This document shows, piece after piece, positions 10,536 to 50,706 of a stretch of DNA of 64,000 nt (its first letter is position 1; every line of letters starts with the position of its first letter). The notes beneath the pieces were generated by a model. The model saw nothing but the letters and a program-made list of their open reading frames with translations, did not search any database and had not been told where the DNA came from. This stretch comes from Verrucomicrobiota bacterium (lineage in GTDB: Bacteria; Verrucomicrobiota; Verrucomicrobiia; Chthoniobacterales; Chthoniobacteraceae). Where the stretch lies: assembly GCA_037133875.1 (NCBI GenBank), contig JBAXNG010000005.1:117486-181485 (forward strand). Reading direction: 5' to 3'. The translations under genes were made by a program, and so were the position numbers.

Positions 10536-10594
10536 GAGGTGAAGAGAAGGCTCAACAAGGAGGAGGCGGAATGCAAGAACGCACCGTGGTTCGC

Positions 10595-10636
10595 AAAAAG
10601 CAAAAGGCGGCCGATCCCAGATGGGAAGGGCCGCCA
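10595..10636 (-). terminator. Rho-independent terminator downstream of gltB
   Basis: The minus strand reads ggcggccc-loop-ggccgcc followed by TTTTGCTTTTT. The plus-strand stem arms are at 10606-10612 and 10629-10635. Confidence 0.6.
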
Positions 10637-10654
10637 GAAACTTAACTTAGCCGA

Positions 10655-31807: not shown

Positions 31808-32021
31808 ATGTTGGTTTTAAGCGTTTTGAGGTTTGTTTTGAGGTAAAGCGTCGGGGGGAGTGCAGAAACTCTAGCCAAGAAGCGGGCCAATTAGGTTAGA
31901 GTAGGGGTTGATCGGTGAAGCTTACAGGGGAGACGCGTTTGTGTCCCACACCACCCTAGTGGCGTGGCCGGTCGGAGCGGTGACGTTCCAAAGCAACAAG
32001 TTGTTAAATAAATCATCCCTA

Positions 32022-33737
32022 ATGAGCTCTGATCCCCAAAGTGTTAAGCCGTTGAGTGCCAACGAAGGCATCAAGATCGAATCGAACTTTCTACGCGGCA
32101 CAATCGCTCAGGAATTACTGGATACCACTACCGGTGCTATTTCTGAATCGAACCAGCAACTGACGAAGTTCCACGGCTTGTATTTGCAGGATGATCGCGA
32201 CTTGCGGAATTCATTGAAGAAAGAGGGCAAGGAAAAGGCCTTCTCGTTCATGTTGCGTGTGCGTCTGGCTGGGGGAAAAGCGACGCCGCAGCAATGGCTT
32301 ATGCTGGATAAGCTCGCAGGGGAGGTGTCTGCACCATCCTTGCGCATCACTACGCGTCAAACGTTCCAGTTTCATGGAGTGCTCAAGGCGAACTTGAAAC
32401 CTCTCGTGAAGGGAATGCATCAAGTGTTGCTCGATTCTATTGCGGCTTGCGGTGATGTGAACCGCAACGTTATGGCGCCTCCAAATCCTGAGCGGAGTGC
32501 TGTGCTCGAAGAGGTTTATCAGCACGCCAGAGATTGGAGTGATTACGCACTGCCCAAAACACGTGCGTATCACGAGATTTGGTTGGATGAAGAATTAGTC
32601 GCCGGTGGTGAGCCTGAGTCGGAGCCAATGTACGGAGCGACCTATCTGCCGCGTAAGTTTAAGACGGCTTTTGCAATCCCTCCCTCGAACGACGTGGATA
32701 TTTTCTCCCAGGATTTGGGATTCATTGCGGTCGTCGAAGGCGAGAAATTGGTGGGGTATAATGTGACTGTGGGTGGTGGACTTGGGATGAGTCACGGGAA
32801 TGCTGAGACATTCCCTCGTCTCGCAGATGTGCTCGGCTTCATTCCGAAGGACAAAGTTAACGCCATTGGTGAAGCGGTGTTGACCACGCAGCGCGATCAT
32901 GGAGATCGCACGAACCGGAAGCATTCCCGTCTCAAATACACGATTCAGGACCGTGGTGTGGCCTGGTTTAAGGCTGAGGTAGAGCGCCGCTCGGGAGTGA
33001 CTTTCGGCGAGGCTCGTCCGTTTAAATTTACGACAATCGAAGATCCCCACGGCTGGCACAAATGTGCTGACGGCACCTGGTTCTTTGGTCTGCACATTTT
33101 GAGCGGACGAATCAAAGACGTCCCCGGCTGGCCGATGAAAACGGCGTTGCGCGAGATTGCTGAAGTTCACACCGGCGATTTCCGTCTGACACCGACTCAG
33201 AACGTGACGATCTCTGGAGTTACCGAAGCGCAGAAGCCGGTGATCGAGGCCATTTTAGCGAAACACGGTCTGGCTTCCGAAAATACCCGTTCCCGTCTTC
33301 GTTTGAATGCGATGTCGTGTGTGGCACTTCCCACTTGCGGTTTGTCTCTTGCTGAAAGTGAACGGGCGCTTCCTGACATCTTGGCGAAGTTTGAGGCAGT
33401 TCTCGACGAAGCTGGATTGAGTGAAGACGCAATCAGTCTGCGTGTGACTGGCTGTCCAAACGGATGTGCTCGTCCATACCTTGCTGAGATCGGGTTTGTC
33501 GGTCGTGCCCCAAATAAATACGCGCTGTATATCGGTGCAAGTTATGAGGGAACCCGACTGAATCGTCTCTTCTCGCCAAGCGTGACGGTGGATGATGCAG
33601 TGAAGATGCTCACGCCGATTATTAAGCGTTTCGCCGTGGAGCGGAATGAAGGGGAAGGCTTCGGCGATTTCTGTGATCGCGTGATCCTTCCTGCAGATGC
33701 GACTTACCACAGTGTAGGAACTGTGGCTGCAAGTTAA
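32022..33737 (+). CDS. cysI: Assimilatory sulfite reductase hemoprotein (siroheme/4Fe-4S)
   Basis: ORF 31908-33737, ATG at 32022. ESNFLRGTIAQEL, LTKFHGLYLQDDRD, and cluster cysteines CVALPTCGLSLAESER and TGCPNGCARP. Confidence 0.85.
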   Translation: MSSDPQSVKPLSANEGIKIESNFLRGTIAQELLDTTTGAISESNQQLTKFHGLYLQDDRDLRNSLKKEGKEKAFSFMLRVRLAGGKATPQQWLMLDKLAGEVSAPSLRITTRQTFQFHGVLKANLKPLVKGMHQVLLDSIAACGDVNRNVMAPPNPERSAVLEEVYQHARDWSDYALPKTRAYHEIWLDEELVAGGEPESEPMYGATYLPRKFKTAFAIPPSNDVDIFSQDLGFIAVVEGEKLVGYNVTVGGGLGMSHGNAETFPRLADVLGFIPKDKVNAIGEAVLTTQRDHGDRTNRKHSRLKYTIQDRGVAWFKAEVERRSGVTFGEARPFKFTTIEDPHGWHKCADGTWFFGLHILSGRIKDVPGWPMKTALREIAEVHTGDFRLTPTQNVTISGVTEAQKPVIEAILAKHGLASENTRSRLRLNAMSCVALPTCGLSLAESERALPDILAKFEAVLDEAGLSEDAISLRVTGCPNGCARPYLAEIGFVGRAPNKYALYIGASYEGTRLNRLFSPSVTVDDAVKMLTPIIKRFAVERNEGEGFGDFCDRVILPADATYHSVGTVAAS

Positions 33738-36969: not shown

Positions 36970-37974
36970 GTGAAAATCTCCCAAATATTATTATCAGGCG
37001 TCGTGTTTGCCGGGCTGAGTTCCGGATCATTGCAGGCTGTGGACAAGCTTAAGGCGTTGATTGTGGATGGGCAAAACAACCACGCCTGGCAGACGACCAC
37101 CCCCGTGATGAAATGGGCGCTGGAGCAGAGTGGCCGTTTTGCGGTGGATATTTCGACGACACCTGAAGCTGCGCCTAAAGCTCCCAAGGCGCCAAAGGAG
37201 CCTAAACCAGAGCAGGTGGCGGCGTTTGAAGCCGCGAATGCCAAGTATCGGGAAGACAAAAAGGCCTACGACGACAAAAAGGAGGAACTGTGGAAGGCCT
37301 GGCACCCGAAGTTTGCCGGATACGACGTTATTGTTTCGAACTACAACGGCGATCTGTGGCCCGAAGAGGTTCGGAAAGCGTTTGTGGAATACGTCAGTAA
37401 CGGGGGCGGGTTCGTGGCGGTTCATGCGGCGGATAACGCGTTTCCGGAGTGGCCTGAATATAATGAAATGATTGGGGTTGGCGGTTGGGGTGGTCGAAAT
37501 GAAAAGTCCGGTCCGATGGTGCGTTATCGCGATGGAAAGATCGTGCGGGACGAGGTGCCTGGAGCGGGTGGGACACATGGCGCGTTTCACGAGTTTGTGG
37601 TGGAGACACGTGATGCGGAACATCCGATTTTGAAGGGGATGCCAGTGAAGTGGAAACACGCTGGAGATGAATTATACGCGAAGCTGCGTGGGCCAGCGAA
37701 AAACATGACGGTATTGGCTACGGCATTTTCGGAGCCTGAGACAAAGGGCACGAGCGAGCATGAGCCGATGTTGATGGTGTTGAACTATGGTAAGGGTCGT
37801 GTTTTTCACACGACGCTGGGGCATAGCGCAGTCTCGATGAGTGGCCTGGGTTTTCAGGTGACGCTGGCTCGCGGCAGTGAATGGGCAGCTACGGGCAAAG
37901 TGACGTTGCCGGCTCCGAGTTCGAGCGAGTTATCGGCGGATACGGCGGCTTTGCGTGAGCCTCCAAAACCGTAG
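36970..37974 (+). CDS. ThuA-like domain protein, secreted, with Lys/Pro/Ala-rich insertion
   Basis: GTG start and signal-like N-terminus. [38 protein letters not shown]. The insert is [17 protein letters not shown]. Confidence 0.7.
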
Positions 37975-38125
37975 TTTTGAGACGGCGAAATGAGCTGGGC
38001 GTCAGAGGCTCCCGGCTCAATCGTCTAGCCTATGCCTCGAGCGAAGTAAGTCCGGGGACCCTTGGCAAGGGCGGGCACAGAAATGCGAGGTTGGAATGGC
38101 GGTTGATTGGCTTTTTGATGCCAAT

Positions 38126-38671
38126 ATGCACAACTTCCTTCGGGTTGCCCTTGCCCTTGTGACATCGTCAGGCAGTCTTCTGGCCGTGTCCGAAGCCTAT
38201 CCTCGCACCGCGCCCGGCGACCTTGAGCTCAAGACCTTGCCCCCAGCCCGTTGGATGCGCACGGAGTCTGCGAAGGATTATTTTGATTCTGACAACGGGC
38301 TGTTTATGAAGCTGTTCCGTTACATTGACTCGAACAGGATTCCCATGACCGCGCCCGTCGAGGCGGGCATCAAACCTGGTACAATGGTCTTCTACATGGA
38401 TCAGGTCTCCGCCAAGCGCGCGGACCTTGCAGAGACGCCTCTAGTGAAGCTTTCTTCGGTGCCTGAACGTCGTGTGGCTGCGATCGGTATCCGCGGCTCG
38501 TATAGCCGCGTGAACTATGAAGAAGCTCTAGTCGAACTACGCGCCTGGCTGGCAAAGCGGACGGACGTGAAGCCCGCGGGGCAGCCGTATGCGGTCTACT
38601 GGAACAGCCCGTTTGTGCCGTTCTTCCTCAAGCAGTCCGAGGTTCACATCCCAGTCGCGCAGACGAAGTGA
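38126..38671 (+). CDS. SOUL/heme-binding-protein family protein, secreted
   Basis: ORF 38096-38671; ATG 38126 gives a signal peptide. FMKLFRYIDSNRIPMTAPV and a C-terminal YWNSPFVPFFLKQSEVHIPV, both typical of the SOUL family. Confidence 0.7.
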   Translation: MHNFLRVALALVTSSGSLLAVSEAYPRTAPGDLELKTLPPARWMRTESAKDYFDSDNGLFMKLFRYIDSNRIPMTAPVEAGIKPGTMVFYMDQVSAKRADLAETPLVKLSSVPERRVAAIGIRGSYSRVNYEEALVELRAWLAKRTDVKPAGQPYAVYWNSPFVPFFLKQSEVHIPVAQTK

Positions 38672-38883
38672 TTAGGTCTGTGGTCAGCCTTGCTGATGAA
38701 CTTTTCGTAAAGGAAAACGAGTCCACAGACTGATCTCAGCTAAAGAACGGAGGCGGATCAGGTGGGCGTGAGTATGAGGGGGGAGCCACGCGACGTATTG
38801 TTGGGCAAGGTGTCTGGTCGATGCGGCTTTTTTACACCGCTAAGTCGCCCGTTTCCAAGCGATGCTCAAGCGCCTCTGTCAGG

Positions 38884-41800
38884 ATGACTCTCATGAAGTC
38901 GTCAACCTCCGTAGTCTTTCGTCAGCTCTTTACGGTGTGTGTTTTGGTTGTCCCAGCGTTCGCGTACGCCGCAGGCGAATTAAGCTTTAACCGGGATATC
39001 CGGTCGATCCTTTCGGACAATTGTTTTGCCTGCCACGGGTTTGATAAAAACAAACGCGACTCCGGGCTTCGGCTCGATCTCCGGGAATCTGCAATTCAGC
39101 CTTCCAAGAGTGGCAGCATAGCGATTGTCCCGGGAAAGCCCGAAGAAAGCGAATTAGTCGCCCGCATTTTCAGTGAAGATGCAGAGGAGGTGATGCCTCC
39201 TCCAAAATCCCACAAAACTTTCACGGCTAAACAGAGAAACCTGCTGAAGCGCTGGATCGCTGAGGGCGCTTCTTACGAGGCACACTGGGCATATACCCCT
39301 CTCACCAAACAACCTGAAACCGGCGCGCCCGAAACGGCAATTGACCATTACCTTGGCAAAAGTCTTGCCGAAAAAGGGATCGTAGCCTCACCACCGGCGG
39401 AGCCTGCAACGTTGATCCGGCGTTTATCTTTGGATCTCACAGGACTTCCACCTACGCCCGAGCAAGTATCCGCATTTAAGACCGCTCACGCGCTCGATCC
39501 ACGCCGCGCCTTTGCAGACGCCCAAAACCAGCTCTTACAATCGCCTCATTATGGAGAACGCTGGGCTGTGTGGTGGCTCGACGCTGTGCGATTTGCGGAC
39601 ACCGTGGGCTATCACGGCGATCAGACCCAGCGCGTCTTTCCGTTCCGCGACTATGTGATTGATTCGTTCAACACCAACAAACGATTCGATCAGTTTACGC
39701 TCGAACAAATCGCCGGGGATCTCCTTCCAAATCCCACCGACGAACAACTCGTCGCCTCAGGGTTCAACCGACTCAGCATGATGACCCGCGAAGGCGGGAT
39801 TCAAGCGAAGGAATACCTCGCTAAATACATGGCGGATCGGGTGCGGGCGGTAGGCAGTGCCTGGCTCGGAGCCACCATCGGATGCGCCGAGTGTCACGAC
39901 CACAAGTTCGATCCTATCACCCAAAAGGACTTCTACTCTCTTGGCGCGTACTTCGCTGATATTAAACAGTACGCACTCTATCACAACGTTTTCACGCCGA
40001 ACCCCGAACTCAAAGGGTGGACGGATCACCATCCTTTCCCGCCGGAGGTTGAGGTGCCAAATCGCTATCGGGAAGAAAGACGGAAGCACTTTGCCGCCGA
40101 AATGCAGCGTATTGTCCAGGGAGCATGGCAACGACATTCCGCGGAGGCCAGACTCGCATGGCAAACCGGTATCCGCGCATTCTTGGAGGAACACCCCTCT
40201 GGTTGGGTCAGTCCAAAACCGACCGTCGAAACCGCGCACAAAAACCATGTCGTCGCAGACTCAGTCCGAATCGAACCCGATTACAGCGTGTTCTTCGAAA
40301 AGAAAGCCGGCACCGAAGTTTGTTTGAAAATCAGTCCGGGAGCGGGCTCTGTGGCAGCGTTGCGTACGGAACTACTGCCGCATGCCGAATACGAGGGAAA
40401 CCTTGTGCGCTCCGGAGAAACGGCCTCCTTACGCGTGCTGCCGAAGGTCCAGTTGTTCCGCCAAGGCCAATCCAATCCCGAATCCTTATCCATTCGCCGT
40501 GCGGATGCTGACTTGAAGGATGTCACGTATTTCCAAGGGGAAAATGAGGTGGATGTGAGTAACGGCTGGCGTCCATCAGCCAAGAATCCACAAATTCCAC
40601 AGACTGCGATTTGGCTATTGAAAGAACCCGTTACCTTAGCCGATGGGGATGAAATTCGGGTGGTGTTCGGCGATGCGAAATTTGTGCCTGCGAGCCTTCG
40701 GGTATCAGTATCTCCGCTGTCGCATCTGCATTATGGAGACGAACAGTTCCCTGCCTCACTGCTCGAAGACCCGGCATTATGGCTTACCTCCACAGGGGCA
40801 GATAACGTCGCGCTTAATGAGTTTTCGGTAGCCGAGAAACACATGCTGGAATGCCGAAACGGACGAGCGCATTCGCTTGTGAGTAAGTCCGTGGAGCCAT
40901 ATCCGGTACATATCCTTCCGAGAGGGAACTGGCAGGACGAATCAGGCGCGGTGGTGCAACCCGCAACGTTAAGCTTCATTCCCACGCTACCCGGAACGAC
41001 TGACCGGCCACAGACCCGACTCGACCTCGCGCGATGGCTTACCTCGAACGAAAATCCAATTACACCGCGAGCGATCATGAATCGGCTTTGGAAACAGTTT
41101 TTTGGCACTGGGCTCAGCGCTGTGTTGGATGATTTAGGAGCGCAGGGTGAACCTCCGAGCCATCCGGAATTGCTCGACTGGTTGGCAATCGAGTTCCGGG
41201 ACAGCGGCTGGGACTTCCAGCACATGGTGCGATTGATTACGAGCTCCGAGGCTTACCAACGAAGTTCCCGGCAGCGCACGGAACTGCGCGAAACAGATCC
41301 TGCCAACCGTTTACTTGCAGCCCAAAACCCGCGGCGACTAGAGGCGGAATTTATCCGCGATAACGCTCTTTCGATCGCAGGGTTACTGAACCGGGATATT
41401 GGAGGACCAAGTGCGCTCGTGTATTTTCCCTCGGAACTATATCGGGATATGGAATTCCCTAAGCGCGTTTACGCGGCGGAGAACGACGACCGCCAATGGC
41501 GACGCGGTATTTACATACACTGGCAGAGAACGTTTCTGCATCCGATGTTGGCAAACTTTGACGCACCAAACCGGGACGAAAGTGCGTGTGCCCGCACCCA
41601 GGCAAACACTCCGCAGCAGGCGCTTACTTTGTTGAACGACCCCACTTTTGTGGAAGCGGCCCGCGTTCTAGCGCAGCGTATCCTCCGCGATATACCTGCG
41701 TTGGACGACAGCAGGCACATCGATTTTGCGTTCGAACGCACCTTAGGACGCGTTGGGACTCCAGAGGAGCATAGCGGTTTACTCCCGCTCCTTGGAAGTT

Positions 41801-41958
41801 TTCGTCAGCAGTTCACCAAGGATCCAGACGCCGCGATGCGCTTGCTCAAGACAGGGATCGCGCCCAAGGAAAACACCATCCCCGAGCCGGAACTCGCCGC
41901 TTGGACAAGTCTTTGTCGTGTTCTGCTGAACCTTCACGAAACCATTACCCGCTACTGA
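38884..41958 (+). CDS. PSCyt1 (heme c) / DUF1549 / DUF1553 multidomain protein
   Basis: ORF 38821-41958; ATG 38884 gives a signal peptide. SDNCFACHG heme-c motif, GCAECHDHKFDP motif, and a long C-terminal region as in PSD1/DUF1553 proteins of Planctomycetota/Verrucomicrobiota. Confidence 0.85.
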   Translation: MTLMKSSTSVVFRQLFTVCVLVVPAFAYAAGELSFNRDIRSILSDNCFACHGFDKNKRDSGLRLDLRESAIQPSKSGSIAIVPGKPEESELVARIFSEDAEEVMPPPKSHKTFTAKQRNLLKRWIAEGASYEAHWAYTPLTKQPETGAPETAIDHYLGKSLAEKGIVASPPAEPATLIRRLSLDLTGLPPTPEQVSAFKTAHALDPRRAFADAQNQLLQSPHYGERWAVWWLDAVRFADTVGYHGDQTQRVFPFRDYVIDSFNTNKRFDQFTLEQIAGDLLPNPTDEQLVASGFNRLSMMTREGGIQAKEYLAKYMADRVRAVGSAWLGATIGCAECHDHKFDPITQKDFYSLGAYFADIKQYALYHNVFTPNPELKGWTDHHPFPPEVEVPNRYREERRKHFAAEMQRIVQGAWQRHSAEARLAWQTGIRAFLEEHPSGWVSPKPTVETAHKNHVVADSVRIEPDYSVFFEKKAGTEVCLKISPGAGSVAALRTELLPHAEYEGNLVRSGETASLRVLPKVQLFRQGQSNPESLSIRRADADLKDVTYFQGENEVDVSNGWRPSAKNPQIPQTAIWLLKEPVTLADGDEIRVVFGDAKFVPASLRVSVSPLSHLHYGDEQFPASLLEDPALWLTSTGADNVALNEFSVAEKHMLECRNGRAHSLVSKSVEPYPVHILPRGNWQDESGAVVQPATLSFIPTLPGTTDRPQTRLDLARWLTSNENPITPRAIMNRLWKQFFGTGLSAVLDDLGAQGEPPSHPELLDWLAIEFRDSGWDFQHMVRLITSSEAYQRSSRQRTELRETDPANRLLAAQNPRRLEAEFIRDNALSIAGLLNRDIGGPSALVYFPSELYRDMEFPKRVYAAENDDRQWRRGIYIHWQRTFLHPMLANFDAPNRDESACARTQANTPQQALTLLNDPTFVEAARVLAQRILRDIPALDDSRHIDFAFERTLGRVGTPEEHSGLLPLLGSFRQQFTKDPDAAMRLLKTGIAPKENTIPEPELAAWTSLCRVLLNLHETITRY

Positions 41959-41961
41959 TCT

Positions 41962-43401
41962 ATGGACCTCCATTCACACGCCAATTGGGATTCCGTTTCC
42001 CGCCGTGCTTTTCTGCATCAGTCCGCATTTGGTCTTGGCGGCATGGCCCTGGCCTCACTGCTACCTGCTGGTTCGGTCTCCGCAGCTGATACTTCCAGCA
42101 CCAAATGGAGCGGAGTCATTAAGTCTCCCCATTCACCCATCCGAGCCAAACGAATCATCTTTCTTTGTATGGCTGGAGGGCCCTCACATTTAGAAACATT
42201 CGACTGGAAACCGGAGCTCAAACGGCTCGACGGTCAGCCCTTCCCCGAGTCATTCACCAAAGGCCAACAGCTCGCCCAACTTCAGGGCTCGGCGCTTAAG
42301 GCTCGCGGACCATTTTGCGAATTCCAGAAACACGGACAAAGCGGGCAGGAAATTAGCAACCTCTTCCCCGGCATCGCTTCGCTGGCTGACGACATCTCGA
42401 TCATCCGCTCGATGCATACGGAGCAGATCAACCACGACACTGCCCACGCATTTATGAATACGGGTAGTATCATCAAGGGACGACCAAGCTTGGGAAGCTG
42501 GCTCCTTTACGGTTTGGGATCCGAAACCGAGGAGTTCCCAGGTTTTGTTGTCCTCACATCGACCGGCAAAAGCGGAGTCCAACCGATCTCGTCGCGGCAA
42601 TGGAGTAGCGGAGTTTTGCCCGGACAGTTTCAGGGCATCCAGTTTCAGGGCAAAGGTCAGCCCGTACATTATCTCGGTAGCCCGGACGGTATCTGTCAAT
42701 CCATGCAGCGCCAGATTGTGGAGGAGGTTCAGCGTATCAACGGACTCACCGCCGAGAGAATGGAGGACTCTGAGGCCAGGGTCCGGATCGCTCAGTACGA
42801 GATGGCTTTTAAAATGCAGACTTCCGTGCCCGAACTCGCCGACCTCAGTCGCGAACCCCAAGCGGTTCTGGATGCCTATGGAATCAAGGAACCCGGCGAT
42901 GGAAGCTTTGCAAGCAACTGTCTGCTTGCGCGAAGACTGACCGAACGCGGAGTGCGTATGGTACAACTCTACCACCGCGGCTGGGACCATCACGGCGGCA
43001 TTGAAGACGGAATGAAAACCGCCGCAGCGGAGACAGACAAAGCCTCCGCGGCGCTGATCCATGACCTAAAGCAACGCGGCCTCCTCGAGGATACTCTGAT
43101 TGTCTGGGGGGGGGAATTTGGCCGCACGCCAATGGGACAGGGTACGGGGCGCGACCATCACATTTTAGGGTTCAGTCTTTTTCTTGCCGGCGGCGGCATT
43201 AAGGGCGGGATGACCTATGGGGCAACGGATGAACTTGGGTACCGCGCGGTGGAGAATGTCGTTCATGTACATGATCTCCAAGCAACGATCCTGCATCTTA
43301 TGGGCATCGACCATTTGCGCTTAACCACGAAGTTTCAGGGGTTAGATGTACGCCTTACGGGGGTGAGTCATGCCAAAGTGCTTCAAGATTTGTTAAGCTG
43401 A
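41962..43401 (+). CDS. DUF1501 (sulfatase/alkaline-phosphatase-like) protein with twin-arginine-type leader
   Basis: Starts 3 nt after the previous stop. SRRAFLHQSAFGLGGMALASL leader, WGGEFGRTP and GRDHH motifs. Confidence 0.85.
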   Translation: MDLHSHANWDSVSRRAFLHQSAFGLGGMALASLLPAGSVSAADTSSTKWSGVIKSPHSPIRAKRIIFLCMAGGPSHLETFDWKPELKRLDGQPFPESFTKGQQLAQLQGSALKARGPFCEFQKHGQSGQEISNLFPGIASLADDISIIRSMHTEQINHDTAHAFMNTGSIIKGRPSLGSWLLYGLGSETEEFPGFVVLTSTGKSGVQPISSRQWSSGVLPGQFQGIQFQGKGQPVHYLGSPDGICQSMQRQIVEEVQRINGLTAERMEDSEARVRIAQYEMAFKMQTSVPELADLSREPQAVLDAYGIKEPGDGSFASNCLLARRLTERGVRMVQLYHRGWDHHGGIEDGMKTAAAETDKASAALIHDLKQRGLLEDTLIVWGGEFGRTPMGQGTGRDHHILGFSLFLAGGGIKGGMTYGATDELGYRAVENVVHVHDLQATILHLMGIDHLRLTTKFQGLDVRLTGVSHAKVLQDLLS

Positions 43402-43413
43402 AGTCCTCTCGGG

Positions 43414-44199
43414 TCACACGATTTTGTCGCTAAGATCTGGAGCAGGGGGCGAGCCAGGACTTTGATGTTCTCGACGATAGCGCGAGGGACTAATTCCCAT
43501 CTGCCCTCTGAACGCGCGATTGAAGTGTGCGTGATCGTAAAAACCGCACTCCTGCGCTAAGGTTGAAACCGTCAGGTTTGTTTCACTGAGCAGACGGCAG
43601 GCGTGTACGATCCGGATCCGCAATAGATATTGGCGCGGACTAGAGCCAAGCGTCTTGCTAAAGGTGCGCTCCAATTGACTCACGGAAAGCCCCGCCAGCT
43701 TTGCGACTTCTTCGTTGCTGATCGGTCGCCCGTAATTTCGGTGCATGTATTCCACTGCAGACGCGAGTTTGTGGATGGCCTCCGGCGCATAATTCATCTG
43801 GACCACCCGTCTGGAAATCCCAGCCACTCCGACAATCCGCCCCTGATCATCCCGGAGCGGAATTTTATTTGTGACGATCAGGTGCGGCGAACCTTCGATC
43901 TGGGGAACGGGTTCCAGTCGGTTCACAATGGGCTGGCCGCTTTCCATGACCATTCGATCGTCAGCGAGGTATTCCGGAATCAGAGCCGCAGGAAATAACT
44001 CCCAGTCTGTTTTCCCAAGTGCTTCCCGTTCCGTACGCACGCCACAAAACTCGCAGGCAAGTCGGTTCAACGCGACAAAACGCCCCTCCCTGTCTTTGAT
44101 GAAAAAAGAGACATCAGGCAGGAACTCAAAGAGGTCGGCAAGTTGGCCGGCAGCTCCGACATGCTTGAAAAAAGCTTCCCGTACGCTGAGAGGATTCAT
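43414..44199 (-). CDS. PAS-domain AraC-family transcriptional regulator
   Basis: N-terminal PAS-like region (FFIKDREGRFVALN...IPLRDDQGRIVGVAGISR). C-terminal AraC HTH (LAKLAGLSVSQLERTFSK...IVHACRLL...STLAQECGFYDHAHFNRAFR). Confidence 0.8.
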   Translation of the reverse strand: MNPLSVREAFFKHVGAAGQLADLFEFLPDVSFFIKDREGRFVALNRLACEFCGVRTEREALGKTDWELFPAALIPEYLADDRMVMESGQPIVNRLEPVPQIEGSPHLIVTNKIPLRDDQGRIVGVAGISRRVVQMNYAPEAIHKLASAVEYMHRNYGRPISNEEVAKLAGLSVSQLERTFSKTLGSSPRQYLLRIRIVHACRLLSETNLTVSTLAQECGFYDHAHFNRAFRGQMGISPSRYRREHQSPGSPPAPDLSDKIV

Positions 44200-44253
44200 T
44201 CGATTTTTCCCAAACTATTATCAGGTAGGCTATGTGGCAATCGAGGTGGGAGA

Positions 44254-44287
44254 CGAATGGCTGTACTAGCCGAATGGCTAATTTAGC
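44254..44287. promoter_or_regulatory. 17-bp tandem direct repeat in the divergent promoter region (candidate AraC-type operator)
   Basis: cgaatggctgtactagc / cgaatggctaatttagc: 13 of 17 positions identical, in the pattern CGAATGGCT-N4-TAGC. Confidence 0.35.
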
Positions 44288-44353
44288 CCCAGCGGGAGTT
44301 ATGAAAGACTTAAACTGGTTCCACAAATTCCAAACTAAATAACCCGCCGCCCA

Positions 44354-45229
44354 ATGTTATTTTCCAAGAAAACCATCCACAACGCAGGTTACGCAGCGCT
44401 CCTCGGGTTCGTCGCCTACCAGTGGATCGAGAGCGATACGATGCAGATCCGGCTCAATCAGAGTTTCGACACCCTGCGGACAGCGCAGCGTGAAACCGAG
44501 GAAGTAAAAGCGCAACTAGCCGAAAGCAAACAACAACTCGAGACAGCGCAATCTCGATTGCAGGAGGTCAACGCCCAGCTCTCGCGAACGCGAAGCGTAG
44601 GATCGAGCGTATCGTCCGACGGCGCATCCGCTGCATCTGGCGCCAATAGCGTAGCTAGCAGTACGTCGTTCACGGAGAGTCTCATACAACTGGCAGAAAA
44701 AGCCGCCCGGTTAGATCGTGGATTCAAGGCCTTCCCAGCGCTGGAAATACCCGAGCTCAGCCTCCTGACTGAGGCGGACTGGATCAAGGTGGTCTCGGAC
44801 CATGCGAACCTCGAGACGCCGGAGCAGATGCGTCGTGCACTGGAATCGCTGGTCGCCAGCGCGAAAGGACGCGCACTTGAAGTCTTTCGGGATGCTGCTT
44901 TCCGCACAGGAGTCGGCTCCGATACCAAATCCACAGCGAATTTAGATCCGCTCCTTTCAGAACTTCGGCAAAAATTGAACGGGCAGATTCTGCAACGCTA
45001 TGAGCTACTCCCAGCCGCTAGTCTTGAATCAGGCTGGTTCGAGCAACCCGACGTGAAACGCCATGTCTCCAGTGTCGACCAAGCGCCTGCTTTGATAGTC
45101 CGTGAAAAAGCCCCAGCAGGCGGGCAGCAACAGGTCCTTGTTTTCTTTGCAATGCCCCAGAGCAGGGACAACGGCAAGCGGTACACTTCTTCGAGCATCT
45201 TTGCCCTCCTGCAGAAGAGCCGTCCCTAA
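44354..45229 (+). CDS. Hypothetical membrane-anchored coiled-coil protein
   Basis: N-terminal hydrophobic helix (AGYAALLGFVAYQWI), a heptad-like Q/E/A-rich segment, a Ser-rich linker and a C-terminal globular part. No family recognised. Confidence 0.6.
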   Translation: MLFSKKTIHNAGYAALLGFVAYQWIESDTMQIRLNQSFDTLRTAQRETEEVKAQLAESKQQLETAQSRLQEVNAQLSRTRSVGSSVSSDGASAASGANSVASSTSFTESLIQLAEKAARLDRGFKAFPALEIPELSLLTEADWIKVVSDHANLETPEQMRRALESLVASAKGRALEVFRDAAFRTGVGSDTKSTANLDPLLSELRQKLNGQILQRYELLPAASLESGWFEQPDVKRHVSSVDQAPALIVREKAPAGGQQQVLVFFAMPQSRDNGKRYTSSSIFALLQKSRP

Positions 45230-45356
45230 GTGCCTCGAAGCCTTCTTTAGCAGGTTCCGAATGTAACGCCTGGACCTGCTGCGCTAACACTTTAAACTAG
45301 GGCGTATGCGTGGTTCGCCGCGAAAAGTGTGTGCTAACATTTTTTGTGGACCAATT

Positions 45357-45402
45357 TCACGGATGCTTACATAGGAAATTCCTAAGAAAAATGCATCCGT
45401 GA
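45357..45402. promoter_or_regulatory. Nested inverted repeat immediately upstream of the DUF1592-family gene
   Basis: Outer 10-bp arms tcacggatgc / gcatccgtga. Inner palindrome TAGGAA-a-TTCCTA at 45372-45384. The element ends 22 nt before ATG 45424. Confidence 0.35.
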
Positions 45403-45423
45403 GGGTTGTATCAAAGGCCCCCC

Positions 45424-47838
45424 ATGAAAGCATCGATGCTCCCTGCTGATCTGAATCCCTTCCGTTTTGCGGTAGGCAAAATTTCTGCTGCTCTGATGTG
45501 TTTAGGGAGTGGCCTTTCCGTTGCTGAAGAAGCAGTAAAAGCGCCCGAACATCCGGGAGCAGCGATATATCGGAGGATGTGCGTCGACTGTCATGGGAAA
45601 CAAGGGGAGGGCGTTGCTGGAAAATACGACGACACACTTTCTGGTAACCGCAGTGTTTCAGGGCTGGCGCGTTTGATTTCAAAAACAATGCCGGAGGGCA
45701 AGGAGGGGACGTGTACCGGAGCAGATGCAGAGGCTGTCGCGTCCTACATTTACGATGCGTTTTATTCGCCGGCTGCACAGGCCCGGATTCGTCCGGTGCA
45801 GGAGAGTCTTTCGCACCTCACAGTTGCGCAGTATCAGAACTCAGTGGCGGATTTGATCGGGCGTTTTCGGCCCGGCTTTGATCGTCCGCCCGCTCAGGAG
45901 CGAGGACTTCGAGTATGGTTCACGGGAGTGGCTGTGCTGACGCCTGAAGAGGAGGCTGAGTACAAAGAGAAGGTGAATGAGGCGCAGAAGACGAAGAAAG
46001 ACAAACCACCCCGGAAGGAGTTTAAGTTCGATCGGATTGATTCGCAGGTTGCGGTGCATTTTGGAGCGGAAAGTCCCAATCCAAAAAAAATGGTGGCTGA
46101 AGAGTTCCGTGCGAATTGGGCTGGGTCAGTGATGGCACCGGAGACGGGTTTATATGAATTTGTGGCCAAGACTGAGAACGGGGTGCGAGTTTATGTAAAC
46201 AACTCCAAAGACCCAATAATAGACGCTTGGGTGAGTACAGGGGCGGAGGTGAGGGATGAAAAGAAGAGTCTTTTTTTGATCGGAGGACGTTCCTATCGCC
46301 TTGCAGTTGAATTCTTGAAATACAAGGACAAGAGCGCGTCGCTGGAGCTTTGGTGGAAAACGCCGCATGGTAACTTGGAGCTGATTCCACAGTCGCGGTT
46401 GATGCCACAAGAGGTGCGCCCGAACATGGTGGTGACCACCGCGATTCCGGCGGATGATCGCAGCGACGGTTATGAAAGGGGCACGTCTGTTTCCAAGGAG
46501 TGGGAGCAGGCCACAACGGCGATCGCGATTGAAGTGTCGGATCACGTCGACGCTGATCTGGACGGATTGGCGGGTACGAAGCCCGGGGCTCCAGATCGGC
46601 TTGAAAAGCTGAAGAATTTTTCCCGCCGGTTTGCGGAGACCGCATTTCGCAGGCCTTTGAGTGAAGATCAGAAGGCGGGTATTGTGGATCGTGCGTTTGA
46701 AAAGGCGCCGACTCCGGGATTAGCTGTGAAGCGAGTCGTGTTGCATACGCTAAAGTCGCCCCAGTTTATTTACCCGGAATTATCCAGTGGAGAGAAGGTG
46801 GACGATTTCACGGTGGCGTCCCGGCTGGCCCTGACGTTGTGGGATTCGATTCCGGATGCGGCTCTCACGAAGGCTGCAAGCGAAGGACGCTTGAAGACCA
46901 GGGAGCAGCTCGAAAAGGAAGTGAAACGGATGGTTGCCGATCAGCGCTGTAAAGCGAAGCTGAACGGATTCTTTCAAGTTTGGCTGGATCTTGAAAAAGC
47001 TGAACATGCTTCCAAGGATGCGAGTTTGTATCCGGAGTTTACGGAGGAAGTCCGTGCGGATTTACGGCAATCGTTAGCGTTATTTTTGGACGAGGTAGTT
47101 TGGGGTGAGAAGTCGGATTACCGGCAACTATTGCAGGCCGACTACCTGTGGTTGAACGACCGCCTCAGTCGTGTTTATGGAAAGCCAGTCGAAGGCGCGA
47201 GCTTTCAAAAGGTATCCATGGCTGAAGAGCACCGCTCGGGGGTGTTGACGCATCCGTATCTGTTATCGGCTTTTGCGTATAGCCGCACGAGTTCTCCCAT
47301 TCATCGTGGAGTGTTTCTCAGTCGGAGTATTGTCGGAGTGAATTTGAAGAACCCGTCGATTGCGGCTGCGTTTGAGGATGCGAAGTTTGACCCCTCGTTA
47401 ACCATGCGCGAGAAGGTCACATCAGTTACGAAAAACGCGTCCTGTGCAGGTTGTCATTCAGTCATCAATCCACTTGGGTTCACGTTGGAGCATTTTGATT
47501 CGCTCGGACGTTGGCGGACGGAAGACAATCACAAGCCTGTGGATTCAGTGGTCGATTTTGACGGGGAGGAAGGCGGCGTCGTTAAGTTTTCGGGAGCGGT
47601 GGATGTGGCGAATCACGCTGTGAAAAGTGCACACGCTCACGAGGCATTTGTGAGGCAGTTGTTTCATTATGTGGTGAAACAGCCGCCGGGCGCTTTTGGC
47701 AGCGAGACGCTGGAGCGCTTGAAATCGGATTTTGCAGCAAACGAATTTAATATTCGCAAGTTATTGGGGCGTGTGGTCCTCACTAAAGTTATGGACGGTA
47801 TGACGCCTGAATCTCCCAAGGTGGCAGGCGCGAACTAG
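45424..47838 (+). CDS. Heme-c / PA14-like / DUF1592-DUF1595-DUF1588-DUF1585-family multidomain protein
   Basis: ORF 45406-47838, ATG at 45424. CVDCHG heme motif. PA14-like block (FRANWAGSVMAPETGLYEFVAKTENGVRVYVNN...YRLAVEFLKY...LELWWKTPHG). C-terminal region typical of PSD-type proteins. Confidence 0.8.
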   Translation: MKASMLPADLNPFRFAVGKISAALMCLGSGLSVAEEAVKAPEHPGAAIYRRMCVDCHGKQGEGVAGKYDDTLSGNRSVSGLARLISKTMPEGKEGTCTGADAEAVASYIYDAFYSPAAQARIRPVQESLSHLTVAQYQNSVADLIGRFRPGFDRPPAQERGLRVWFTGVAVLTPEEEAEYKEKVNEAQKTKKDKPPRKEFKFDRIDSQVAVHFGAESPNPKKMVAEEFRANWAGSVMAPETGLYEFVAKTENGVRVYVNNSKDPIIDAWVSTGAEVRDEKKSLFLIGGRSYRLAVEFLKYKDKSASLELWWKTPHGNLELIPQSRLMPQEVRPNMVVTTAIPADDRSDGYERGTSVSKEWEQATTAIAIEVSDHVDADLDGLAGTKPGAPDRLEKLKNFSRRFAETAFRRPLSEDQKAGIVDRAFEKAPTPGLAVKRVVLHTLKSPQFIYPELSSGEKVDDFTVASRLALTLWDSIPDAALTKAASEGRLKTREQLEKEVKRMVADQRCKAKLNGFFQVWLDLEKAEHASKDASLYPEFTEEVRADLRQSLALFLDEVVWGEKSDYRQLLQADYLWLNDRLSRVYGKPVEGASFQKVSMAEEHRSGVLTHPYLLSAFAYSRTSSPIHRGVFLSRSIVGVNLKNPSIAAAFEDAKFDPSLTMREKVTSVTKNASCAGCHSVINPLGFTLEHFDSLGRWRTEDNHKPVDSVVDFDGEEGGVVKFSGAVDVANHAVKSAHAHEAFVRQLFHYVVKQPPGAFGSETLERLKSDFAANEFNIRKLLGRVVLTKVMDGMTPESPKVAGAN

Positions 47839-47878
47839 GCAGCGAATCTGACTTTCATTTCAAATATTTCCCCAGTTT

Positions 47879-49195
47879 ATGAACCATCTCAATCGCCGTG
47901 AGTTTCTACGCAACTTGGGAGTATCAGCCGCAGCGCTCCCGTTTTTGACGGGCTTGCCTAGTTTGACTGGTGCGGATGTGAGCCCGAGACGGAAGCGGCT
48001 CGTGATTATGTTTTCGCCCAATGGTACGTTGCCAAAGGAGTTCTGGCCGGACGAAGAGGGCGAAAATTTTCAGTTCAAGCCGATCCTCGATGCGCTCGGA
48101 CCGTTTAAGGCGCAGACCATGATTTTGCAGGGCGTCTTCAACAAAATTAAAGGCGACGGGGATCAGCACATGCGCGGCATGAGTTGTTTGTTAACCGCGA
48201 ATGGTTTGTTGCCGGGCAATGTTATGGGCGGAGGTGGGGCACCTGCGGGTTGGGCGAGTAGTATTTCGATTGATCAGGAGATTAAGAAATTCTTTCAAAC
48301 TCGTTCGGAAACGCGGACGCGATTTGGCTCTCTCGAGTTTGGTGTGGCTGTCCCCAATCGCGCGGATCCTTGGACACGGATGAGTTATCTTGGGCCCAAT
48401 CAGCCGGTGGCGCCGCTGGACGATCCGTATGGGATGTTTTCAAAGCTGTATGGGCAGATGAAAGACAAAGAAAGTCTGCTGAGTATTTTGGACGATGTGA
48501 AAGAGGATCTCCGCAAGGTCTCGGCGAAACTGAGCACCCACGACAAACAGTTGCTTGAACAGCATGCGTCGTTGGTGAGGAGTTTTGAATCCGAGCTCAA
48601 GGCGCCGCCGGATAAATCAATCCAGCACCCGATGCCCCCGTTGGATCCAGGGATTGAGTTGGTGAACGATAATACACCGAAGATTAGCAGGATGCAGATT
48701 AACCTGTTGGTGAACGCGCTTGCTAATGACATGGCGCGGGTTGCAACACTGCAATACATGCGGAGTGTCGGCGGGGCCCAGATGCGCTGGTTGGGAGTGG
48801 AGGAAGGACACCATGGCCTTTCCCATGATCCGGACGATAACAAAGATTCGTACGCGAAACTTTTGAAGATCAACCAGTGGTTTGCAGGGGAGTTTGCGTA
48901 TATGGCGCAGCGTTTGTCAGAAACTCCGGAACCGTTTGGAACGGGTTCGATGCTGGATAATACCCTCCTGATTTGGACGAACGAATTAGGGAAAGGCAAT
49001 TCCCATACGCTTGATAATATCCCCCTCGTGATGATCGGGGGCGGCGCAGATTTCAAAATGGGGCGTTCGCTCAAGCTGGATAAAGTTGCGCATAACAGGC
49101 TGTGGTTGTCAGTTGCGCAGGGACTGGGGCACCACGAACTGGCGAGCTTTGGGCAGGCGGACTTATGCGCGGAAGGTCCTTTGCCTTTGGGCTAA
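47879..49195 (+). CDS. DUF1552 (HXXSHH) protein with twin-arginine-type leader
   Basis: NRREFLRNLGVSAAALPF leader and EEGHHGLSHDPDD motif. Lies 40 nt downstream of the DUF1592-family gene. Confidence 0.85.
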   Translation: MNHLNRREFLRNLGVSAAALPFLTGLPSLTGADVSPRRKRLVIMFSPNGTLPKEFWPDEEGENFQFKPILDALGPFKAQTMILQGVFNKIKGDGDQHMRGMSCLLTANGLLPGNVMGGGGAPAGWASSISIDQEIKKFFQTRSETRTRFGSLEFGVAVPNRADPWTRMSYLGPNQPVAPLDDPYGMFSKLYGQMKDKESLLSILDDVKEDLRKVSAKLSTHDKQLLEQHASLVRSFESELKAPPDKSIQHPMPPLDPGIELVNDNTPKISRMQINLLVNALANDMARVATLQYMRSVGGAQMRWLGVEEGHHGLSHDPDDNKDSYAKLLKINQWFAGEFAYMAQRLSETPEPFGTGSMLDNTLLIWTNELGKGNSHTLDNIPLVMIGGGADFKMGRSLKLDKVAHNRLWLSVAQGLGHHELASFGQADLCAEGPLPLG

Positions 49196-49207
49196 GGGCA
49201 TCGCGGC

Positions 49208-49774
49208 TTATCGGACGAGAATCCCTTTGAGGACAACTCTGCCGTTTGAGCTCATGTTGAATGCGCCTTTTACTGCGATTCTCTGGCCGATACGGAAGAA
49301 GACTTTGGTTTCGACATTTTTGCCGTCGGACTGGGATCTCTGATATCTGCTGAGAAGAAGGTCATTCCCTTGGCGGGTTAATCGCATGGATGCAGCGTTC
49401 GCGTAAGCTTGTTTTAAACTCACTTCACAGCGCAGCGTGCCGTCGAGGATTACCGAAAGCTGCATCGGGTCGCTGATGGAAATGTCTAGAGTCGTAACTT
49501 CACCGCGGACAATTGCGGTCTTTGGGAGAGTCGGGAGCGCCTTTAATTCGTCGATGGAGTAGGCCTGATAGTCGTTGGCGGAGGGGCTGGGTGAACCTTG
49601 GTTTAAAGGGTTGCCTCCAGTGTTTTCCATAGCCGAAGTTGCCGCGTTGCCGGGAGTTCGTACACGCTGGGGGGAGTCGGATTCGTCAGGAAAAAGAGAA
49701 ATGTCGGTAGGTCTTTCGCAGGCAACTAATGACGCCAGAAGTAAAAACGAAAGGGAACGGCAGGTACGAGGCAT
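49208..49774 (-). CDS. Hypothetical lipoprotein
   Basis: Lipobox LLLASLVAC after a basic N-terminus. No family recognised. Confidence 0.55.
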   Translation of the reverse strand: MPRTCRSLSFLLLASLVACERPTDISLFPDESDSPQRVRTPGNAATSAMENTGGNPLNQGSPSPSANDYQAYSIDELKALPTLPKTAIVRGEVTTLDISISDPMQLSVILDGTLRCEVSLKQAYANAASMRLTRQGNDLLLSRYQRSQSDGKNVETKVFFRIGQRIAVKGAFNMSSNGRVVLKGILVR

Positions 49775-49926
49775 TGGCGCGAATCTAAATGGCAGTCTCG
49801 TGGATTATCAACCTGGATTCGTATGATGTGCGTTGAGGATTGAAGGCTTCGCAGGTGCGCAGTTTGAGGGGAGTAATTCGCAAACAAGGGGTAGATTCAA
49901 AAGGGACTGCAGTTCAGTGTGCGTGA

Positions 49927-50706
49927 ATGCGAATTTGGGTTTTATGGTGTTTGGTTATAGCGAGCTGGATACTGGTTCTGCCCGTTCGTGGCGAAGAAAC
50001 GGGCTTGGGCAAACTGGACTTCAATTCCTATATGGAGGGGCGCCATGTTTTTGAACGAAACTGTGCTGTTTGCCACGGTGCCAGAGGGGATGGAAAAGGC
50101 GAATTGGGTGAGACATTGTTGCCCAAGCCGCGTTCGTTTCGTGAAGGGATGTTCAAGTTTCGTACGACTCCTTGGGGGACACTTCCGACGGATGATGACC
50201 TGCGGCGCACGATTTCTGGCGGACTCAGCGGGACGGCGATGGGCATGTTTTCACACTTGTCTGGGCAAGAGCTAGAGGCGGTCATAGTTTATGTGAAGGC
50301 CTTTTCGAGGCGTTGGCGCAATGCGGATAACTATGCTGCCTCCCTGAGTTTTCCGCAGCAGCCGGCTTGGTTTAATGACCCAAGGCTACAGCGGGATCAT
50401 GTGCAAAGCGGGCAGCAGGTTTTCGCTGCAAATTGCATGACGTGCCATGGCGCAGCAGCGGATGGAAAAGGTGAGGCTGCAGCTGCACTAAAAGATATTT
50501 GGGGAGAGGTCGCGGTGCCGTCGGATTTGCGTCAACCGCACCTGCGTTGTGGAGATGCACCGGGCGATATTTATCGAATCCTCGCGACTGGGCTGAATGG
50601 CACACCGATGGTGAGTTTCGGTCCAGTTCTAACGGAGGATCAGCGTTGGGACGTGATTGCGTTTATTCTCAGTCTTCGGTTGCCTGCGGGGCCTGTGGTG
50701 AATTGA
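49927..50706 (+). CDS. Di-heme c-type cytochrome, secreted
   Basis: Signal peptide. Two CxxCH motifs (CAVCHG, CMTCHG), each followed by Met-containing distal-ligand regions. Confidence 0.8.
   Translation: MRIWVLWCLVIASWILVLPVRGEETGLGKLDFNSYMEGRHVFERNCAVCHGARGDGKGELGETLLPKPRSFREGMFKFRTTPWGTLPTDDDLRRTISGGLSGTAMGMFSHLSGQELEAVIVYVKAFSRRWRNADNYAASLSFPQQPAWFNDPRLQRDHVQSGQQVFAANCMTCHGAAADGKGEAAAALKDIWGEVAVPSDLRQPHLRCGDAPGDIYRILATGLNGTPMVSFGPVLTEDQRWDVIAFILSLRLPAGPVVN

Follow-up and report, generated by a model that had tools for sequence, protein, structure and literature searches.

Two neighbouring haem-protein and Tat-partner gene pairs in a Verrucomicrobiota contig: one system or two cassettes?

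When two similar gene pairs lie side by side with a regulator and several possible redox proteins, do they make up one machine, or are they separate units that happen to be neighbours? This question is raised by a 64,000-nucleotide stretch of DNA from a Verrucomicrobiota bacterium of the family Chthoniobacteraceae (assembly GCA_037133875.1, contig JBAXNG010000005.1, positions 117,486 to 181,485), which we refer to as the window. Between positions 38884 and 49195 it carries two gene pairs, each encoding a large Sec-exported protein with haem c motifs followed by a partner exported by way of twin-arginine translocation (Tat). A preliminary description had joined these pairs and the genes around them into a single extracytoplasmic system with its own regulator and redox accessories.

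We are highly confident of two things taken jointly: that the pairs are cassettes of a recognisable kind, and that they do not belong to an eight-gene system. The fuller reading, which we consider somewhat probable, is that the locus holds two independent two-gene cassettes of a published, uncharacterised Planctomycetes-Verrucomicrobia-Chlamydiae (PVC) type, brought side by side by a lineage-specific rearrangement. The earlier finding was a correct rediscovery of a known open problem, over-extended to the neighbouring genes.

The problem is a large one. Few gene families of free-living Verrucomicrobiota and Planctomycetota are as expanded as these cassettes, with dozens per published metagenome-assembled genome (MAG), and 7,862 cluster representatives in 1.84 billion matched DUF1552, the partner family of the second pair, at E<=1e-3. 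Solving the function of one cassette would annotate much PVC "dark matter", probably a step in polysaccharide turnover. Among thousands of such loci the present one is unremarkable, and by itself it brings the solution no nearer; what should be studied is the pair of genes and not the 12-kb region around it.

The two pairs and their conservation

The four cassette genes are as follows.

38884-41958, plus strand: pair 1 haem protein, with a Sec signal and Pfam domains PSCyt1, PSCyt2/DUF1549 and PSD1/DUF1553
41962-43401, plus strand: pair 1 Tat-exported partner, DUF1501 (Pfam E 1.9e-150), with motifs SRRAFL and WGGEFGRTP
45424-47838 (reading frame also open from 45406), plus strand: pair 2 haem protein, with cytochrome c, PA14, weak PSD5, PSD4, PSCyt3 and weak PSD2
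47879-49195, plus strand: pair 2 Tat-exported partner, DUF1552/HXXSHH (Pfam 1.1e-75), with motifs NRREFL and GHHGLSHD

All the genes, motifs and spacings that the preliminary description had listed were present in the open reading frames (ORFs), their translations and the Pfam matches. Pfam recovered PSCyt1-PSCyt2-PSD1 with DUF1501 for pair 1, cytochrome c-PA14-PSD4-PSCyt3 with DUF1552 for pair 2, and the PAS-AraC, di-haem cytochrome and SOUL families among the neighbouring genes; PSD5 and PSD2 stayed below threshold. These family matches lie well outside what chance would produce. The description had been right to see two analogous pairs of Sec-exported haem protein and Tat partner, in which the twin-arginine (RR) motif is invariant, and had missed one feature, a second CxxCH motif in the pair 2 haem protein. 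None of the four cassette proteins is covered by an NCBIfam model.

Where the pair 1 haem protein starts is uncertain to within a few codons (38821, 38884 or 38893, of which the gene caller chose the last), and its N-terminus is a signal-like sequence. PSCyt1 (residues 68-128, E 2.4e-17), PSCyt2/DUF1549 (residues 174-382, E 2.7e-74) and PSD1/DUF1553 (residues 732-988, E 2.6e-89) all scored above the Pfam gathering thresholds. Two haem c motifs are present: CFACHG, in the class-I cytochrome c domain (PSCyt1), and CAECHDHKFDP, which holds the second CxxCH, in PSCyt2. Among orthologs and paralogs, the CxxCH at residues 68-72 was conserved in 11 of 12 and that at 355-359 in all 12. A central region of about 350 amino acids (window 39967-41013; residues ~383-731 of the ORF from 38821) had no Pfam match. 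Because paralogs carry Laminin_G_3 or F5_F8_type_C at the same position, this region may be a specificity module. It is 25-30% identical among homologs, compared with 50-60% in the flanking domains.

The TGA of this gene ends at 41958 and the next ATG begins at 41962 on the same strand, which leaves a gap of 3 nt. The DUF1501 partner encoded there opens with SRRAFL, followed by a hydrophobic stretch and VSA-A, and we read the Tat assignment from this motif; R14, R15 and F17 were invariant in 31 orthologs and in a set of 10 orthologs and paralogs. The DUF1501 orthologs, that of Singulisphaera included, were at least 70% identical. A DUF1501 protein identical to that of the window is recorded from a Verrucomicrobiota MAG, and a Logan assembly contains the same region.

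In pair 2, the haem protein has a Sec signal-like N-terminus and lies 40 nt upstream of DUF1552 on the same strand. Pfam matched Cytochrome_CBB3 (6.3e-10, with the motif CVDCHG), PA14 (4.8e-12), PSD4/DUF1592 (2.4e-38) and PSCyt3/DUF1588 (5.8e-27). The matches to PSD5/DUF1595 (29.4 bits against a cutoff of 34.2) and PSD2/DUF1585 (23.4 against 25.8) fell short of the gathering scores, and Pfam detected no PSD3/DUF1587. The second haem motif, CAGCH, lies inside PSCyt3 (residues 680-684 of the ORF from 45406; window 47461-47475). Both CxxCH motifs were invariant in 49 of 49 orthologs. Such invariance across haem-protein orthologs implies selection on haem binding.

Are the two large proteins related to each other? 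Only the N-terminal cytochrome domain could be aligned (59%, E 9e-5); PSCyt2/PSD1 showed no similarity to PSD4/PSCyt3/PSD2 apart from the CxxCH motif itself. Hence, we do not claim homology between the two large haem proteins.

Conservation of the pairs was assessed in two samples, both anchored on orthologs of the Tat partners: 80 metagenome loci for DUF1501 (62-75% identity), of which the 60 with at least 1 kb of upstream sequence were counted, and 80 genome loci for DUF1552 (67-85% identity), of which 75 were counted. In 57 of 60 loci, the gene directly upstream of DUF1501 encoded a PSCyt2/PSD1 protein. DUF1552 orthologs had a PSCyt3/PSD4 gene directly upstream in 48 of 75 loci, and three further loci had an extra gene between the haem protein and DUF1552. 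The synteny in related genomes on which the preliminary description depended was thus borne out. Roseimicrobium and the planctomycete Singulisphaera also have pair 1, as do two closer relatives. We conclude that both pairs are real cassettes, pair 1 being nearly obligate and pair 2 looser.

Within the cassettes, the Tat partners are far better conserved than the haem partners. Between this MAG and Singulisphaera, that is, between Verrucomicrobiota and Planctomycetota, DUF1501 is 71% identical compared with 52% for its haem partner; within Verrucomicrobiota, DUF1552 is 67-86% identical and its haem partner 47-73%. Strong constraint or horizontal transfer could account for this. Because these orthologs are conserved to an exceptional degree, with at least 70% identity between phyla, they would suit biochemical work well.

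What surrounds the cassettes elsewhere? Recurrent neighbours were sulfatases, 3-keto-disaccharide hydrolases, ThuA and GFO/IDH/MocA proteins, each making up at most 5% of the neighbour genes, so that the gene context is weakly saccharolytic. Censuses of neighbour genes for a shared metabolic partner gave diverse, low-frequency neighbours only.

Several individual loci deserve mention. In locus L063 (6762-11314), a PSCyt1-PSCyt2-Laminin_G_3-PSD1 protein, the usual type of DUF1501 partner, is encoded 77 nt upstream of a DUF1552 ortholog. In locus L053 (5813-11320), a 1333-residue ThuA-NPCBM-DUF7133-HEAT-cytochrome c protein is encoded directly upstream of DUF1552. Pair 2 is preceded by ThuA genes in the window and in loci L006-L008 too, a hint that ThuA-type proteins and DUF1552 are connected. 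Three MAG contigs titled 'Akkermansia muciniphila' (L008, L038 and L051) carry pair 2. A. muciniphila has been reported to lack these modules (PMC4960237), and the three are probably mislabelled environmental bins.

One system or two independent cassettes

Could all eight or nine genes of the locus nevertheless form one extracytoplasmic redox system, with two catalytic modules, a PAS-AraC regulator, a di-haem electron carrier, a SOUL chaperone and membrane anchors? The features that bear on this possibility are as follows.

37975-45405, no strand: block comprising the SOUL gene, pair 1, the PAS-AraC gene and the coiled-coil gene; missing between ThuA and the pair 2 haem protein in the closest relatives, and with aberrant GC skew
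38096-38671, plus strand: SOUL haem-binding-family protein (Pfam 2.9e-20), at the left edge of the block
43414-44199, minus strand: regulator with PAS_4 (6.8e-17) and an AraC-type helix-turn-helix (HTH_18 2e-24, HTH_AraC 2.3e-18; all Pfam)
44354-45229, plus strand: membrane-anchored coiled-coil protein with an N-terminal hydrophobic helix followed by a coiled coil; no Pfam or NCBIfam family
49208-49774, minus strand: putative lipoprotein with an LVAC lipobox; no Pfam or NCBIfam family
49927-50706, plus strand: exported di-haem class-I cytochrome c, with two CxxCH motifs and Pfam Cytochrom_C on two stretches

We consider a single system improbable. If the accessory genes belonged to it, their homologs should accompany the cassettes elsewhere; those of the di-haem cytochrome, the lipoprotein, the coiled-coil protein and the SOUL protein lay next to neither pair in about 165 other loci, and a SOUL gene was found in none of them, L004 and L005 included. 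Among 5.8 billion proteins, only about 10 clusters are homologous to the coiled-coil protein, and the two homolog contexts that we examined were unrelated and contained no PSCyt/DUF cassette. The protein is probably lineage specific and not part of the cassettes. Hence, the redox accessories of the preliminary description could not be upheld.

Its claim that the locus has its own regulator fared better, in that the PAS-AraC gene is a recurrent neighbour of the cassettes, albeit in only about 5 of 165 loci and so far from constant. A 57% identical ortholog occupies the same position after pair 1 in L005, and PAS-AraC genes lie a few kilobases from pair 2 in L037, L038 and L084. In the window, the regulator gene converges on pair 1 and diverges from the coiled-coil gene and from pair 2, an arrangement that would suit a single system. 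It may control one cassette here; it is not a defining part of either.

Points against two independent cassettes come from about three other contigs in which pair 1 and pair 2 are neighbours. The P0125 contig, the fifth locus with the regulator, has a pair 1-like cassette, then a PAS-AraC gene, then pair 2; L104 has a DUF1552 fragment and a generic AraC gene upstream of pair 1; and in L145 a divergent pair 2 follows pair 1. Is such proximity more than coincidence? In only a few percent of the sampled loci did the enzyme family or the haem-protein type of the other pair occur within 10 kb, and published Verrucomicrobia MAGs contain up to 71 DUF1501 and 17 DUF1552 genes (PMC5615132). At that copy number, adjacency of the two cassette types at a few percent is about what chance would give. 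By this estimate of our own, the proximity of the two pairs is roughly within, and not clearly beyond, chance.

The closest relatives of the locus (L006-L008), in which the helicase is 82-85%, ThuA 79-80% and DUF1552 85-86% identical to those of the window, suggest how the pairs came together. There the gene order is helicase, GIY-YIG and/or ThuA, and then directly the pair 2 haem protein and DUF1552; the whole block at 37975-45405 is missing. In the window, GC skew inside the block runs from about -0.1 to +0.08, compared with +0.15 to +0.25 on both sides. Where relatives carry pair 1, its skew is only slightly below that of its flanks, so that coding constraints would account for the anomaly only in part. 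The block edges showed neither flanking repeats nor a tRNA or an integrase, and an alignment of the junction with L006 and L008 contained nothing informative past the end of ThuA. Because the block is absent from the closest relatives and has aberrant skew, we read it as recent; it looks like a lineage-specific insertion or rearrangement that put pair 1 and the regulator beside pair 2.

The rest of the window consists of housekeeping genes: those for GltB (glutamate synthase), LepA, BamA, DegP-like proteases, YchF and a sulfite/nitrite reductase, and further those for Dxr, CdsA, LpxD, Amt and HisF. On this content we rejected a phage or defence origin. No other PSCyt, DUF1501 or DUF1552 genes occur elsewhere in the 64-kb window. 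Two ThuA-family genes lie within 7 kb of each other (30929-31807 and 36970-37974), and the first adjoins the sulfite/nitrite-reductase-like gene (31908-33737). A scan for promoters and terminators gave counts at or below shuffled expectation, so that no operon boundaries can be drawn from it. Over window positions 1-64000, GC skew of the plus strand was uniformly positive (+0.09 to +0.29 per 2 kb) regardless of gene orientation, which suggests that a single replichore, of unusually strong strand bias, contains the entire window.

Fold, putative active site and possible mechanism of the Tat partners

The large haem proteins could be aligned only in their cytochrome domains. Are their Tat partners related? 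Profiles were compared by using more diverse alignments, built from orthologs and paralogs in the fetched loci. DUF1501 matched DUF1552 over the whole length (hhalign 97%, E 1.2e-10, 358 columns); with the diverse DUF1552 alignment the match was 94%, over only 65 C-terminal columns. By these profile comparisons the two Tat partners are homologous to each other, which, like their common superfamily fold and the invariant His discussed below, is an addition of the present analysis.

The preliminary description had assigned a sulfatase-like fold to DUF1501. Profile comparison agreed: DUF1501 matched the S1 sulfatases of the same loci over the C-terminal core (hhalign 92%, E 5.6e-7), and DUF1501 proteins repeatedly gave sub-threshold Pfam matches to Sulfatase and Phosphodiest. 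Searches against PDB sequences, by sequence or profile, returned nothing significant, the best match being an S1_8C sulfatase for DUF1501 (E 0.4). For DUF1552, an AlphaFold2 (AF2) model (predicted local distance difference test [pLDDT] 65.6; predicted template modelling score [pTM] 0.73) was compared with the PDB by Foldseek. The top matches were nearly all S1 sulfatases, phosphonate monoester hydrolases (PMH), nucleotide pyrophosphatases/phosphodiesterases (NPP), YejM and alkaline phosphatase, with a probability of up to 1.0 and a template modelling (TM) score of 0.3-0.4. Compared directly by profile, DUF1552 and the sulfatases reached only 3-8.5% in hhalign, so that the link between them runs through Foldseek and through DUF1501 as an intermediate. 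Both Tat partners (~45-50 kDa) are thus predicted to adopt the alkaline-phosphatase/sulfatase superfamily fold, DUF1552 on the basis of its structural model and DUF1501 on that of its profiles.

If the fold is that of a sulfatase, is the catalytic apparatus retained? The formylglycine signature C/S-x-P-x-R-x4-T-G is in neither Tat partner, although sulfatases of the same loci do have CxPxR. The equivalent stretch reads H158-DTA-H162-AFMN-TG (HDTAHAFMNTG) in DUF1501 and H97-MRGMSCLL-TA in DUF1552, whose family consensus is HQxGMGxLLTG. In both families the spacing is that of CxPxRxxxxTG and the His is invariant; in the DUF1552 model this His sits between strand 2 and the next helix, in agreement with the position of the formylglycine. 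The Asp-Asp metal ligands after strand 1 are likewise absent from the Tat partners, which have GG or NG there (MAGGPS or FSPNGT), and in place of the Asp-His/Asn after the last core strand (sulfatase S-D-N/H-G) they have G-E-F-G or N-E-L-G.

With the signature missing and the Asp ligands replaced, the Tat partners are not canonical sulfatases. As far as their sequences tell, they cannot use the formylglycine mechanism, and an invariant His stands at the position of the formylglycine Cys. The only residues invariant among 78 DUF1552 sequences of 32-64% identity are H97, D132, H312, H316 and H376; among DUF1501 orthologs and paralogs the invariant set includes D81, H158, D342, H344, E385, R388 and H399. 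This invariant His/Asp/Glu cluster looks like a metal site. Homologous Tat partners with a predicted sulfatase fold, no formylglycine mechanism and an invariant His-rich site are useful to know of when experiments are designed.

How might such pairs work? We tentatively propose that the Sec-exported di-haem protein (800-1000 residues) and the Tat-exported sulfatase-fold metalloprotein would assemble in the periplasm. The variable middle module of the haem protein (PA14 in pair 2, the 350-residue region in pair 1) would recognise a glycan-derived substrate, and electrons would pass between the haems and a His-ligated metal centre acquired by the Tat partner in the cytoplasm. The chemistry would be redox assisted rather than simple ester hydrolysis. 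We think this mechanism less likely than not.

A more specific version of this proposal seems to us unlikely, though worth stating. DUF1501 and DUF1552 would be sister redox metalloenzymes on a sulfatase scaffold, with His replacing formylglycine and with a transition metal loaded in the cytoplasm, while the di-haem partner served as a lectin-like receptor and electron wire. Loading of the metal in the cytoplasm would explain why Tat export is universal. If this were true, the two families would be a new enzyme class within a very abundant uncharacterised family, and the hundreds of paralogous PVC pairs would be an oxidative counterpart to glycoside hydrolases and sulfatases acting on (sulfated) periplasmic glycans.

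A number of observations weigh against the redox-complex mechanism and the structural assignments beneath it. Complex formation, haem loading, the metal, the substrate and the redox chemistry are all inferred from sequence. The active-site loops of the DUF1552 model are of low confidence. The AF2 model of DUF1501 reached a pLDDT of only 49.6 and its Foldseek matches were meaningless; the alignment behind it was shallow (31 orthologs, all at least 70% identical), and hence the model was poor. That His158 aligns with the formylglycine Cys is based on motif spacing and on a forced global hhalign alignment, in a part of it where confidence is low. Nor is the haem partner always at hand: DUF1501 pairs with DUF1800 in Proteobacteria (PMC5122149), and about 20 of the 75 DUF1552 orthologs were solitary, with no large haem protein encoded within 10 kb. 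These solitary orthologs are 71-74% identical to DUF1552 of the window and come mostly from Prosthecobacter and other Verrucomicrobiaceae (among them loci L027, L028, L040, L047, L050, L052, L058, L064, L070, L073, L074, L077 and L082, around positions 10001-11320). They often lie just after cysS, a (class-V) aminotransferase gene, glgE or a GH77 gene. They argue against an obligate complex with the haem protein, and the DUF1552 Tat enzyme may work without an adjacent haem partner in Prosthecobacter-like genomes. DUF1800 is not known to carry haem motifs, and so haem would not be a general requirement of the DUF1501 enzyme family.

Hydrolases make up most of the characterised enzymes with this fold, and this raises a serious rival. 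Perhaps the Tat partners are ordinary metal-dependent hydrolases of sulfate, phosphate or phosphonate esters on glycans, and the haem protein is only a binding or anchoring scaffold whose haems serve structure, sensing or unrelated electron transfer? The solitary DUF1552 orthologs and the partnership of DUF1501 with DUF1800 in other phyla would both fit this explanation. So would the Foldseek results, in which the characterised catalytic matches (sulfatases, PMH, NPP and alkaline phosphatase) were nearly all hydrolases, and the genomic context, in which sulfatase and Phosphodiest genes were the commonest neighbours. A hydroxyl residue (S75 in DUF1501, T50 in DUF1552) is also present after strand 1. 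However, S75 is conserved in only 7 of 10 DUF1501 paralogs, and canonical residues are gone: there is no C/S-x-P-x-R, and both the Asp-Asp and the Asp-His positions are substituted. Moreover, both CxxCH motifs are kept across haem-protein orthologs, as would be expected if haem binding were under selection. We regard the hydrolase explanation as possible and rather doubtful.

The same losses could be read in another way. With the canonical nucleophile and Asp ligands gone, the Tat partners might be non-catalytic binding or assembly modules of the alkaline-phosphatase fold, like the periplasmic domain of YejM/PbgA, and the pairs might be structural or transport parts of the PVC envelope. YejM ranked ninth in Foldseek. 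Conservation as extreme as that of the Tat partners across phyla is what a protein with many interaction surfaces might display, and Kamneva et al. found a correlation of these modules with compartmentalised PVC species and suggested a role in intracellular membranes (PMC3542564). Against this, the invariant His/Asp/Glu cluster occupies positions of the superfamily metal site, and the carbohydrate-binding inserts differ between paralogs, which suggests substrate diversity. Tat export, which usually marks cofactor-containing proteins, is universal here. Hence, a non-catalytic role appears very improbable, and we retain the reading of two independent cassettes with a tentative redox mechanism.

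Relation to known systems

How much of this had been described before? Both pairings, the PA14 and other carbohydrate-binding module (CBM) inserts and the idea of a glycan redox enzyme are already published. Kamneva et al. (2012; PMC3542564) described the module of DUF1501 with PSCyt1/PSCyt2/PSD1, its Tat and signal peptides and its carbohydrate-binding inserts, and put forward the idea that electrons are passed to sugars or proteins. He et al. (2017; PMC5615132) grouped the architectures, counted PA14 among the CBMs and stated that the function was wholly unknown. In full-text searches we found no functional or structural study of these families, in keeping with what the preliminary description had said of them.

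Pair 1 corresponds to the PSCyt1/PSCyt2/PSD1 and DUF1501 module (PMC3542564; 'Group II' of PMC5615132), with which it shares the domain order, the adjacent twin-arginine DUF1501 and the phyla of occurrence. It is a plain member, without the Laminin_G_3, F5_F8_type_C or Big_2 insert that many Group II paralogs carry. There is no essential difference from Group II; pair 1 is distinguished by its place in a recent-looking inserted block and by the PAS-AraC gene that follows it.

Pair 2 corresponds to the PSCyt3/PSD4 (+PSD2/3/5) and DUF1552 module ('Group III'; He 2017, Text S1 and Fig. S7b). It has the same PSCyt3 and PSD4, weak PSD5 and PSD2, PA14, and DUF1552 immediately downstream. It departs from Group III in that PSD3/DUF1587 was not detected by Pfam and in that the N-terminal haem domain scores as Cytochrome_CBB3, not as PSCyt1.

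Two other systems resemble the Tat partners. The DUF1800 and DUF1501 operons of Proteobacteria (Goncalves et al. 2016; PMC5122149) likewise place a Tat-exported DUF1501 protein beside a partner of no known function in a conserved operon; there the partner is DUF1800, whereas here it is a PSCyt/PSD protein. The S1 sulfatases (human steroid sulfatase, 1p49; carrageenan sulfatases, 9hh2 and 6bia) share the predicted overall fold and the 'TLxxW/F-x-x-[DE]-x-G' strand and loop after the long helix. Unlike them, the Tat partners have His for Cys, no Asp-Asp and Glu-Phe or Glu-Leu, are exported by Tat, and have a haem-protein partner encoded alongside.

For the haem side, the comparison is with Cbp2D of Cellvibrio japonicus (CjX183; Branch et al. 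2021, PMC8981238). Like the large haem proteins, Cbp2D is secreted and combines a class-I c-type cytochrome domain with CBMs and the 'planctomycete-specific' DUF1587/PSD3. Its overall architecture is different, no DUF1552 or DUF1501 gene is adjacent, and its partner enzyme is a copper lytic polysaccharide monooxygenase (LPMO), which the cytochrome domain can reduce (PMC8981238). Cbp2D is the nearest and best experimental precedent for the mechanism that we propose.

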